DNA of 28,488 bases, taken from the UHGV virus genome UHGV-0289470; one strand, written 5' to 3'. Position 1 is the stretch's first letter, and the number at the start of each line of letters is the position of its first letter. This document shows positions 8,719 through 12,391 of the stretch, one piece after another. Source of the DNA: a virus. The notes beneath the pieces are model-generated. The model was given only the letters and a program-made list of their open reading frames with translations, searched no databases and had not been told where the DNA came from. Made by a program: the position numbers and the translations under genes.

Positions 8719-8861
8719 ATGTCCGCAGTAAACGCGCATCTCACGCGCATATTAACGAGAGCCTTTCAGTAAGCGAGCCTGAGAAATGCCGTTATAGGTG
8801 GCGACCTCTCTCGGGCGGCTTTTCTGTGAGACAGGCTCACTTTCTAAAAGGTAAAGACGCA

Positions 8862-9404
8862 ATGAACTACCCAACCGTTGTTAACGATATAGATTTCAGA
8901 GACCTAATTTTTGTAGCAAACAACGATCCGGTTACAGATTCTTTTATGGTGGCAAAAGCATTTGGAAAGCTGCCGAAGAACGTAGTCCGTGACATTGAGC
9001 GAACCATAGAAGCTTGCCCTCCTGAGTTTGATACAAAGCTCAACTTTGAGCTTTGCTATAAAAACAATGAGTTACAGAATGGTAAGCCGCAAAAATTCTA
9101 CCGTCTCCGTAAGGATTGGTTGATGCTTTTGGTTATGTCCTACACCAAAAAAGAAGCAATGCGTATCAAAATTGCTTACATCAACGCATTTAACTGGATG
9201 TACGCCATGCTTCAGGTTGGTCATCGTCAATTTGAAGAAGAGAGAAATGCCGTAATGCTGGAGTACATGAAAGAGAAGGATGTTGCCAGCATGTCAGGTC
9301 GTCTGCTCAATCGCTGGGGAAAAATTAAGAAGCCTCAGCTACTGGCGAGAATTGAACGCCTTGAACAGCACGGGCAAACCGTAATCCCCGGACTCACCAG
9401 TTAA
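8862..9404 (+). CDS. Rha-family phage regulatory protein (antirepressor-like)
   Basis: ORF track 8826..9404; ATG 8862. The segment YRLRKDWLMLLVMSYTKKEAMRIKIAYINAFNWM fits the Rha domain core; N-terminal HTH-like region VTDSFMVAKAFGK. Confidence 0.55.
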   Translation: MNYPTVVNDIDFRDLIFVANNDPVTDSFMVAKAFGKLPKNVVRDIERTIEACPPEFDTKLNFELCYKNNELQNGKPQKFYRLRKDWLMLLVMSYTKKEAMRIKIAYINAFNWMYAMLQVGHRQFEEERNAVMLEYMKEKDVASMSGRLLNRWGKIKKPQLLARIERLEQHGQTVIPGLTS

Positions 9405-9690
9405 CGGCAGTACCACGAAGCAACCCAAGCCAGTAAGTGGGGAAATAACACTGGCAGCCACTGAAAGATGAACCTCCTGCCTTATGGCAAAAAAGATTCT
9501 TTGTGGTGGCGGACTGATGGAAAGACATCGGTTATTGCAGAGGCCATTCAATGAGTGGTCTCGACAATGGCTTATACCCTGCACGGGATAACTTAACTGA
9601 TATCCCTTTTAACGGATAAACGGAGCCAACAATGGCAGAGAATGTCGGCATTATGGCAGTGAAATTTGGATAAATCGGAGATTAGTACAT

Positions 9691-10041
9691 ATGCCGCCAC
9701 GAATCCCAAAAGCCTGCCGTGCTCGAGGTTGCCGTAATACCACGACAGACCCGTCAGGCTACTGCGAAAGCCACAAAAGCGAAGGCTGGAAGCAATACAA
9801 GCCAGGACAATCCCGTCATCAGCGCGGCTACGGTTCGAAGTGGGACGTTATCCGTGCGCGTGTGCTGAAACGTGACAAAGGCCTGTGTCAGTTATGTCTG
9901 CGTGCCGGGATGGTGCGTGAAGCTAAAACCGTTGACCACATCATCCCTAAAGCGCATGGCGGCACCGATGCAGACAGTAATCTGCAGAGCCTGTGCTGGC
10001 CGTGCCATAAGGCGAAGACGGCCCGTGAACGGTTGAAGTGA
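9691..10041 (+). CDS. HNH endonuclease associated with the terminase (HK97 gp74-like)
   Basis: Cys-rich N-terminus, HNH core ..VDHIIPKAHGG..N.QSLCWPCH..; immediately upstream of TerS. Confidence 0.8.
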   Translation: MPPRIPKACRARGCRNTTTDPSGYCESHKSEGWKQYKPGQSRHQRGYGSKWDVIRARVLKRDKGLCQLCLRAGMVREAKTVDHIIPKAHGGTDADSNLQSLCWPCHKAKTARERLK

Positions 10042-10067
10042 TAATAATTCTCAACTGCCTGAGGGGA

Positions 10068-10127
10068 GGGGCGGGTCAAATCCCTGCGGCCTGACGTCTT
10101 CCGGACTGCCCGCCCCATCGTTTTTTT
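10068..10127 (+). other. GC-rich imperfect palindrome plus T7 tract between HNH and terminase genes; terminator and/or cos-associated site
   Basis: GGGGCGGG (10068-10075) pairs with CCCGCCCC (10109-10116) around an internal GACGTC-centred sub-palindrome, followed by TTTTTTT (10121-10127). Confidence 0.4.
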
Positions 10128-10166
10128 ATACCCGCGAAAAATGAAATTTAACCAGGAGTGCCGCAT

Positions 10167-10661
10167 ATGGCTGGAACGGCGGGGCGTTCCGGGCGTCGCC
10201 CCAAGCCAACGGCGCGCAAGGCGCTGGCCGGAAACCCCGGCAAGCGAGCCCTGAACAAAGATGAACCTGTTTTTACGCCCATCAAAGGTGTTGAGCCACC
10301 AGAGTGGTTCGCTGAAGAAGATCTCCCTCTCGCCACGATCATGTGGCAACTGACAACCAAAGAACTCTGCGGTCAGGGCCTGTTGTGCGTGACTGACCTC
10401 GCGGTGCTTGAGCGGTGGTGCGTGGCCTATGAGTTCTGGCGACGTGCCGTGAAAAATATTGCCATACAGGGCAACACCATCACCGGTGCAATGGGCGGCA
10501 GGGTCAAAAATCCGGAGCTGACCGCCAAAAAAGAACAGGAGTCCGAGATGAGCAGCACGGGGGCAATGCTCGGACTCGACCCCAGCAGCCGCCAGCGTCT
10601 GATTGGCCTGGCGGGGCAGAAGAAAGCCACTAACCCGTTTCTGAAAATCATCGAGTCATGA
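10167..10661 (+). CDS. terminase small subunit (P27 family)
   Basis: ORF track 10158..10661; ATG 10167 after AGGAG (10154-10158). N-terminus [30 protein letters not shown] is typical of P27-family TerS. Confidence 0.75.
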
Positions 10662-12391
10662 GCCGGAAATCTTACCCCAACGTAAATGCTGCCAATCAGT
10701 ATGCCCGTGATGTTGTGCGCGGAAAGATTGTGGCCTGCCAGTTTGTGATTCAGGCCTGCCAGCGCCATCTTGATGACCTGATGGCGGAAAAAAGTAAGTC
10801 GTTTCGTTACCGCTTCGACAAGGACCTGGCTGAACGGGCCGCCAAATTTATTCAGCTGTTGCCGCACACCAAGGGTGAGTGGGCATTTAAACGGATGCCC
10901 ATCACGCTGGAGCCGTGGCAGCTATTTGTGATCTGCTGTGCGTTTGGCTGGGTCAATAAAGGGTCCCGGCTGCGCCGCTTCCGGGAGGTGTATACCGAAA
11001 TCCCCCGTAAGAACGGCAAATCGGCAATCTCTGCCGGTGTTGCCCTGTATTGTTTTGCCTGTGATAACGAGTTTGGCGCGGAAGTGTATTCCGGTGCCAC
11101 GACAGAGAAACAGGCGTGGGAAGTCTTTCGCCCGGCGCGACTGATGTGTAAACGCACACCCATGCTGACGGAAGCGTTCGGGATTGAGGTTAACGCCTCA
11201 AACATGAATCGTCCGGAGGATGGCGCGCGGTTTGAACCGCTGATCGGTAACCCCGGTGATGGTTCATCACCCCACTGTGCGGTGGTGGATGAATATCACG
11301 AGCACGCCACCGATGCGCTTTACACCACGATGCTTACCGGGATGGGGGCGCGACGTCAGCCACTGATGTGGGCCATTACTACTGCCGGGTACAACATTGA
11401 GGGGCCGTGCTACGACAAGCGGCGGGAAGTCATCGAGATGCTCAACGGCTCGGTGCCCAACGATGAACTGTTCGGGATCATCTATACCGTTGATGAAGGT
11501 GACGACTGGACCGACCCGCAGGTGCTGGAAAAAGCCAATCCAAATATTGGCGTGTCGGTTTATCGCGAATTTTTGTTAAGTCAGCAGCAGCGTGCGAAAA
11601 ATAACGCCCGTCTGGCAAACGTCTTTAAAACAAAACACCTCAATATCTGGGTGTCGGCGCGTTCGGCGTATTTCAACCTGGTGAGCTGGCAGAGCTGCGA
11701 GGATAAATCACTGACCCTTGAGCAGTTCGAGGGGCAGCCGTGCATTCTGGCCTTTGACCTGGCGCGTAAGCTGGATATGAACAGCATGCCGCGACTTTAT
11801 ACCCGCGAGATTGACGGTAAAACGCATTACTACAGTGTGGCCCCGCGTTTCTGGGTACCGTATGACACGGTGTACAGCGTCGAGAAAAATGAAGATCGAC
11901 GGACAGCCGAACGCTTTCAGAAATGGGTGGAAATGGGCGTCCTGACCGTTACCGATGGTGCAGAGGTGGATTATCGCTACATCCTCGAAGAGGCCAAAGC
12001 GGCGAACAAAATCAGCCCGGTCAGCGAGTCACCCATCGACCCCTTCGGGGCGACCGGGCTCTCACATGACCTTGCTGATGAAGGCCTGAACCCCGTCACC
12101 ATCATTCAGAACTACACCAACATGTCCGACCCGATGAAAGAGCTGGAAGCGGCAATTGAATCGGGGCGCTTTCATCATGATGGCAATCCCATCATGACCT
12201 GGTGTATCGGCAACGTGGTCGGCAAAACCATTCCGGGTAACGATGATGTGGTGAAGCCCGTCAAAGAGCAGGCGGAAAACAAAATCGATGGTGCAGTTGC
12301 GCTGATTATGGCGGTTGGCAGAGCCATGCTGTACGAGAAAGAAGACACGCTGTCTGACCACATTGAATCCTATGGGATCCGCTCGCTTTAA
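10658..12391 (+). CDS. terminase large subunit
   Basis: 577 aa, HK97-type large-terminase architecture (N-terminal ATPase, C-terminal nuclease); start overlaps the TerS stop. Confidence 0.85.

Follow-up and report, generated by a model that had tools for sequence, protein, structure and literature searches.

Genes and DNA elements at the locus

The DNA analysed here, referred to as the window, is a stretch of 28,488 nucleotides of the virus genome UHGV-0289470. Positions 9691–10166 comprise an HNH endonuclease gene and the 125-nt intergenic region that separates it from the gene of the small terminase subunit (TerS). The genes and DNA elements in and around this interval are listed below in their order along the window; "nick" refers to the predicted cleavage positions flanking 10107–10116.

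9691–10041, plus strand: HNH endonuclease gene, 116 aa, terminase-associated nuclease of the gp74 type (Pfam PF01844, E 6.6e-16)
10063–10075, plus strand: G-rich box (G-box) GGGGAGGGGCGGG, conserved upstream cos element, at a fixed distance to the nick in 53 distinct relatives
10076–10082, plus strand: TCAAATC heptamer, 24–30 nt left of the left nick, conserved in the family and identical in HK97
10083–10103, plus strand: 21-nt spacer of constant length, first 5 nt semi-conserved and the rest variable; holds GACGTC and most of TCCGGA
10104–10106, plus strand: GAC triplet immediately left of the left nick, A and C nearly invariant; GAC of HK97 in the same register
10107–10116, plus strand: predicted cohesive-end sequence TGCCCGCCCC, equivalent of cosN, by identity with the SfI end
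10117–10127, plus strand: ATCG and seven T's, predicted to begin the left chromosome end; the T-run forms the left portion of the conserved box
10122–10151, plus strand: 30-nt box TTTTTTATACCCGCGAAAAATGAAATTTAA, nearly invariant (column entropy about 0), +6 to +35 from the nick
10167–10661, plus strand: small terminase subunit TerS, P27 family, 164 aa (PF05119 Terminase_4, E 3.7e-20)
10658–12391, plus strand: large terminase subunit TerL, HK97 type (PF03354 and PF20441, ATPase and nuclease domains)

The HNH protein resembles the terminase-associated HNH endonuclease of Geobacillus phage GVE2 (PDB 5H0M, E 8e-13), and a BLASTP comparison with HK97 gp74 gave 38% identity over 65 aa (E 1e-10), showing that the two are homologous. 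TerS scored 72.6 bits against PF05119, for which the gathering cut-off is 24.7, and its homologues carry the NCBI name "phage terminase small subunit P27 family". TerL matched the structure of HK97 TerL (PDB 6Z6D, E 2.2e-25) and its first 80 aa share 99% identity with SfV orf2. Downstream of TerL follow genes for a portal protein (PF04860), an S78 prohead protease (PF04586), and an HK97-type capsid protein (PF05065). The HNH gene adjoins the terminase genes on the same strand, and the association of such nucleases with terminases is established knowledge (Kala et al. 2014, cited in PMC5304195). The TerL and HNH homologies, together with the portal, protease, and capsid order, bear out the earlier proposal that an HNH gene directly upstream of a P27-family TerS represents the HK97-type arrangement. 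The true start of terS is the ATG at 10167, as indicated by the homologues and by an AGGAG at 10154–10158; unlike this, the program-made list of open reading frames opens the gene at the GTG at 10158.

In the intergenic region, the last 8 nt of the G-box, GGGGCGGG (10068–10075), face CCCGCCCC at 10109–10116 with 8 out of 8 positions complementary and 33 nt between the arms. The region also holds two 6-bp palindromes, GACGTC at 10093–10098 and TCCGGA at 10100–10105, and the seven T's (10121–10127) begin 4 nt (ATCG) past the 3′ arm. The HNH gene, TerS, the 8-bp arms, GACGTC, and the seven T's had all been pointed out in the preliminary description of this DNA, and each lies where it had been placed. 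The description had proposed that the element could be a transcriptional terminator or attenuator, part of the cos site, or both.

Identity with the cos site of SfV- and SfI-type phages

A megablast search with positions 9600–10700 against deposited phage genomes matched the serotype-converting phages SfII, SfIV, SfV, and SfI of Shigella flexneri at 97–99% (97.8–98.9%) identity, and several E. coli and Salmonella phages were matched along the entire interval from HNH to terS. When the ends of SfI virion DNA were sequenced by run-off, a 10-nt gap, 5′-TGCCCGCCCC-3′, was seen relative to the prophage, from which cos packaging was concluded, as had been postulated for SfV (PMC3636060). The cos is described as identical in SfI, SfII, SfIV, and SfV (PMC3851460). 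In the window, the decamer TGCCCGCCCC occurs as a single copy, at 10107–10116, and the sequence GGACTGCCCGCCCC is identical in the window and in the cos of the SfV/SfI group. The 3′ arm of the noted stem would therefore be the cohesive end itself. Thus, of the proposals made for this element, the one that it forms part of the cos site has held, as the region of the 3′ arm coincides with the experimentally determined end of SfI. We are highly confident that 9691–10166 comprises the packaging-initiation and packaging-termination cos site of a temperate phage of the SfV/SfI/SfII/SfIV type, together with its HNH gene.

By identity with SfI, the bottom strand is expected to be nicked at 10106/10107 and the top strand at 10116/10117, which would give 10-nt 3′ overhangs. 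We infer this polarity, for the ends of both SfI and the window, from the word "gap", since a gap in both run-off reads is expected of recessed 5′ ends; it agrees with HK97, whose ends are 10-nt 3′ overhangs (PMC9410871).

The differences between the window and the described phages are small. The spacer is CCCTGCGGCC in the window and TCTGTGACC in SfV/SfI, with few substitutions, and at +1 the window and SfV have A where SfI has G. The SfI paper also speaks of a single T/A exchange relative to the SfV cos, which was not found in the deposited sequences. Whereas the ends of SfI were mapped on virion DNA, the window is an uncharacterised copy known from its sequence. A full-text literature search for the cohesive-end string returned unrelated primers only, among the best 10 of 36 matches.

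The cos site of SfV/SfI-type phages is already published and the window is one more prophage copy of it. Of 5426 complete E. coli genomes, 1789 carry the module, which is also present in at least 591 IMG/VR contigs; as the already described cos site of a very common E. coli/Shigella prophage, the finding is ordinary, and as a re-identification there is little at stake in it. In practice, the sequence allows the precise chromosome ends of such prophages to be predicted, as GAC, the nick, and then 10 nt.

The GenBank records of the SfV/SfI-type group are inconsistent in their positions of linearisation. The SfI record ends with ...GGACTGCCCGCCCC and restarts with GTCGTTTTTTTATACCCGCG, corresponding to 10116|10117 of the window, while the SfV record ends with ...CCTGACGTCT and restarts with TCCGGACTGCCCGCCCC, corresponding to 10099|10100, 7 nt to the left of the overhang; the published records therefore disagree on the exact end. 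Relative to this one cos, four linearisation points were seen: 10099|10100 in U82619.2 (SfV), 10041|10042 in KC736978.1 (SfII), 10116|10117 in JX509734.1 (SfI), and about 10151|10152 in AY055382.1 (ST64B). The position in the SfI record alone matches the experimentally determined end.

Conservation of the cos region among relatives

A scan of IMG/VR for related loci yielded only copies that were 99–100% identical and useless for covariation, and it was replaced by a profile scan of a one-genome-per-species collection. The profile, built from 23 TerS homologues, retrieved 62 loci from Enterobacteriaceae, Xenorhabdus/Photorhabdus, Morganellaceae, Gilliamella, and beta-proteobacteria (Comamonas, Acidovorax, and Pseudorhodoferax). 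In 57 of them, TerS is preceded by an HNH homologue on its own strand. Of the five others, four have almost no upstream sequence in the locus, and the fifth is a distant locus of Chloroflexota with a TerS identity of 30%.

The loci contained 53 distinct cos regions, which, anchored on one motif, gave a gap-free alignment between the G-box and the terS side. Three blocks are conserved: the G-box with TCAAATC, GAC-YGCC at the nick, and a box of about 30 nt to its right, whereas variation is seen in the outer spacer and directly to the right of the nick. The family form of the 30-nt box is aTTTTtAtacCCGCGAAAaATgAAaTTtAA, corresponding to 10122–10151 of the window; in loci L088–L147 the box was taken to extend from about 11 nt ahead of the CGCGAAA motif to 19 nt past it. 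Between 21 and 29 of its 30 positions are identical to the window in loci where TerS is 53–80% identical at the DNA level and 44–89% at the protein level. The near-invariance spans hosts from E. coli to Comamonas and Acidovorax and exceeds the conservation of either flanking protein. T's (at least 4, usually 5–7) stand at the position of the T-run in nearly all relatives, whatever precedes them. In the loci of Xenorhabdus, Photorhabdus, and Morganellaceae, some 50–60 nt are added between the box and the terS start, and the box stays beside the nick.

Two further readings of the left part were tried and rejected. An IHF-like site at (G/A)TCAAATC, judged by eye only, is a poor match to the consensus WATCAANNNNTTR. 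Mutual information was used to look for a structured RNA, such as a tRNA T-arm-like stem around TCAAATC; the screen of all pairs of alignment columns gave a clade signal only and no Watson-Crick covariation.

The inverted repeat and the terminator reading

What the locus has in common with intrinsic terminators is a coding-strand T-run preceded by a G:C-rich inverted repeat. Read in this way, the stem and the seven T's would form a Rho-independent terminator or attenuator, alone or superimposed on cos, that stops transcripts of the lysis/HNH region before the head genes unless the RNA polymerase is antiterminated. The 8-bp G:C stem, the U-run starting 4 nt after it, and a local minimum free energy of −27.9 kcal/mol fit such a role. 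However, a consensus terminator scan made no call, the loop is 33 nt where 3–8 nt is the criterion, and the T-run stands 4 nt off the stem end at 10116 where 0–2 nt would be required. RNA folding z-scores, computed against dinucleotide shuffles, were 0.06 for 10042–10166, −0.96 for 10060–10130, and −0.23 for the core, so that the fold has no excess stability; the mean and median over the family were −0.71 and −0.43, respectively. A search of 9300–10500 on either strand against Rfam 15 gave no match up to an E-value of 1.

The comparison of relatives points in the same direction. In the covariation alignment (A2, 47 sequences), the 8 pairs of the stem are standard in 69.7% of the cells, as opposed to 71.8% after shuffling, with 489 of 500 shuffles reaching at least the observed value, and partner columns slid by one pair give 70.2%. 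There is thus no covariation, and RNAalifold predicted zero consensus pairs. A canonical hairpin before the T-run is present in 12 of the 53 regions, confined to the Xenorhabdus/Photorhabdus group and one Yersinia locus, while the T-run is retained within the DNA box even in regions that lack a preceding hairpin. With the terminator scan, stability, covariation, and loop length all against it, the terminator or attenuator part of the earlier proposal did not stand, and we regard such a function of the window element as highly improbable.

The situation differs in the Xenorhabdus clade, which speaks for a terminator at this place. Its hairpins have 7–10 bp and loops of 6–8 nt, straddle the nick, are followed by T6–T7, and reach z-scores of −2 to −3; in eight Xenorhabdus loci, a canonical hairpin abuts T6–T7 at the nick. 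Some lineages may thus plausibly have a terminator here, and one superimposed on cos looks real in the Xenorhabdus lineage and not in the clade of the window. An example of these hairpins is GCCTCAGGGG-ACCGCC-CCCTTGGGGC followed by TTTTTTT, located roughly 45 to 10 nt before the conserved box. They were seen over the predicted cos nick in loci L114, L116–L120, and L131, and the sequences of the arms differ between species.

The repeat could also act as DNA. According to this explanation, GGGGCGGG and CCCGCCCC would be a functional symmetry element, either a pair of half-sites that flank the spacer and are bound by one protein (TerL or HNH), or a cruciform or fold-back placing the nicks. The complementarity is perfect in the clade of the window, the Gilliamella loci likewise reach 8 bp (a length attained by 1–2 of 200 shuffles), and a third related copy, GGCGGGGCG, lies at 10178–10186, where arm I1 pairs with 10111–10122. 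When the arms of the window were shuffled, the expected longest match was 4.9 and 8 was reached in 5 of 200 shuffles, so for a G-rich arm facing a C-rich arm an 8-bp complementarity is only modestly unusual. Among the 53 relatives, however, 8 bp between the G-box and the cos end is kept in only 6; the commonest value is 5 and the mean 5.2, against 4.5 expected. The pairing in the alignment is no higher than in the shuffled or slid controls given above, and the dyad centre of the nicks (10111/10112) differs from the centre of the repeat. HK97 keeps the G-box, yet its overhang CGCCGCCAAA is not complementary to it. A selected symmetry of this kind is thus improbable. Most simply, the perfect 8-bp repeat of the E. 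coli/Shigella clade results by coincidence from two G/C-rich motifs, G-rich upstream and C-rich at the cohesive end, each conserved on its own for recognition by proteins, and is not a selected hairpin.

The same applies to the smaller palindromes. The GACGTC hairpin of the window has a p-value of 0.92, the best hairpin in the spacer averages 3.4 over the family when 3.2 is expected, and GACGTC is confined to the closest clade. The idea of a conserved hairpin or palindrome within the spacer, be it GACGTC or those picked by eye in relatives, was rejected, as only 3 of 53 regions had p ≤ 0.05, which is chance level. Hence, the 8-bp stem enclosing a GACGTC-centred palindrome is present in the sequence as had been described, but its pairing in the window is only modestly unusual and is not kept among the relatives, and the palindrome is neither beyond chance nor conserved.

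Comparison with HK97

The window shares with HK97 the order HNH, cos, terS, terL, a 10-nt overhang, which in the window is predicted, and a TerS site, likewise a predicted one in the window, just right of the nick. The HK97 record ends with ...GGGGGGGGGATCAAATC-(21 nt)-GAC-CGCCGCCAAA and restarts with GTTTGAATTTAAC..., and the order in the window is GGGGCGGG-TCAAATC-(21 nt)-GAC-TGCCCGCCCC followed, across the nick, by ATCG.... At the right end of HK97 (L007, 570–633), GGGGGGGGG occupies the position of the G-box, TCAAATC is identical, and the spacing to GAC is also 21 nt. When the sequences were anchored at the nick, HK97 matched 15 of the 20 strongly conserved columns to the left of it, compared with 4–13 at other offsets. 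To the right of the nick, 10 of 28 conserved columns were matched.

On the other hand, the overhang of HK97 is CGCCGCCAAA and that of the window TGCCCGCCCC, and the distance from the end of the HNH gene to the nick is about 320 bp in HK97 and 65 bp in the window. The small subunits differ as well: TerS of the window is a P27/Terminase_4 protein, whereas HK97 gp1 falls outside PF05119, and no sequence similarity was detectable between the two. The predicted fold of TerS resembles that of HK97 TerS, although for TerS a Foldseek search alone was not significant.

With the left half of cos shared and the right half and TerS different, the left half travels with the homologous TerL and HNH proteins. 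This suggests that TerL/HNH may recognise the left half of cos and TerS the right half. For HK97, gp74 has been found to stimulate cleavage at cos by terminase in vitro (PMC9410871; PMC11331095). By analogy, the G-box may be a site for TerL/HNH or a cosQ-like site.

The 30-nt box as a putative TerS site

The minimal TerS site of HK97 lies at +15 to +29, CTAACCCGATTTTTT; its C:G pair at +21 is contacted in a base-specific manner and the adjacent A/T tract is required (PMC11331095). The window has TACCCG at +13 to +18, then CG, and then AAAAA at +21 to +25. Because the box at 10122–10151 sits where HK97 TerS binds and has CCCG beside an A/T tract, it is probably the recognition site of the P27-family TerS and the equivalent of cosB. 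As TerS of the window has no detectable similarity to gp1, the transfer of the site from HK97 is one of analogy in position.

Alternatively, the box could serve as a promoter or regulator site of the head operon, or be bound by a host bending protein, rather than by TerS. It lies upstream of terS and is AT-rich with A and T tracts in phase, and a conserved regulator could explain why it is conserved in different hosts. Against this, no sigma-70-like promoter was found within 8800–11200, and in the loci with some 50–60 nt extra the distance of the box is fixed to the nick and not to the start of terS. Moreover, TerS binds the equivalent position in HK97 and needs a CCCG core beside the A/T tract, and it is the right half of cos that differs between HK97 and the SfV-type family, as does TerS, while the left half is shared. 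We therefore consider a regulatory or bending-protein site unlikely and keep to the putative TerS site.

In the literature examined, no description of the deep conservation of this cos architecture and of the 30-nt box was found. A cos architecture of about 100 bp, and above all its 30-nt box, surpasses TerS in conservation in two classes of Proteobacteria, which may be of use for questions of terminase specificity, transduction range, and satellites that hijack cos.

A third copy resembling the G-box was observed in codons 3–7 of terS. It reads AACGGCGGGGCG (10175–10186), contains the GGCGGGGCG mentioned above, and forms with 10111–10122 (CGCCCCATCGTT, which spans the right nick) a 12-nt inverted repeat of 83%. 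Constraint on DNA and on protein cannot be separated at 10175–10186, as the copy encodes invariant N-terminal residues of TerS.

Proposed packaging scheme

In the scheme that we propose, TerS would bind the box at 10122–10151 just right of the nick on concatemeric DNA. TerL, aided by the HNH protein, would then nick the strands 10 nt apart around TGCCCGCCCC, leaving 10-nt 3′ cohesive ends. The DNA on the right of the cut, from terS, terL, and portal onward, would enter the capsid first, and the HNH gene and the G-box end would enter last. The G-box/TCAAATC-GAC segment would thereby be the last DNA to pass the motor at the next cos, in a position like that of cosQ, and is a candidate termination signal; by analogy, the G-box and TCAAATC are most likely read by TerL/HNH during cleavage or termination. 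The identity with the SfI/SfV cos, the homologies, and the conservation pattern used here were obtained with sequence tools; the ends of SfI and the overhang, TerS site, and gp74 stimulation of HK97 come from the literature on these relatives; and we infer the 3′ polarity in the window, the TerS site, and the role of the G-box.

A comparable three-part layout is known from lambda, with a short upstream termination element, a nick site, and a downstream region bound by TerS (PMC4669245). The upstream element, cosQ, is a conserved element of 7 bp that is required for termination (PMC4669245). In lambda, packaging likewise proceeds rightward from the TerS side. There are differences too: lambda has no HNH partner, its TerS is of the Nu1 type with R sites and IHF, and there is no sequence similarity. 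The overhangs of lambda are 12-nt 5′ overhangs. Its cohesive end is given as 12 positions in PMC4669245, and different lengths are quoted in the discussion of PMC9410871. The G-box and TCAAATC may be equated with cosQ of lambda by analogy of position only.

Taken more widely, the HNH-dependent cos of the HK97 type could be composed of modular DNA elements whose conservation goes deeper than that of the proteins reading them. Its left half would go with TerL/HNH, its right half, TTTTTATACCCGCGAAAAATGAAATTTAA, would be a near-universal site of P27-family TerS from Enterobacteriaceae to Comamonadaceae, and Xenorhabdus would add a terminator hairpin at the nick. We offer this generalisation tentatively, as a possibility that falls somewhat short of even chances. 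If it is true, packaging specificity would be almost independent of the host in this very large group of phages and satellites, and a replicon carrying about 100 bp of cos could be packaged by unrelated prophages across genera.

Upstream boundary of the module

A mosaic joint was observed in the window at 9600–9690. Positions 9600–9641 match, at 100% identity, the right-end region of many P22-like and lambda-like phages (HK620, epsilon34, HK75, mEpX1, and others), and from about 9690 onward the matches are to SfV-type phages only. On the minus strand, a terminator-like hairpin with a T-run is located at 9473–9494, in the non-coding gap between a Rha-family gene (8826–9404) and the HNH gene.
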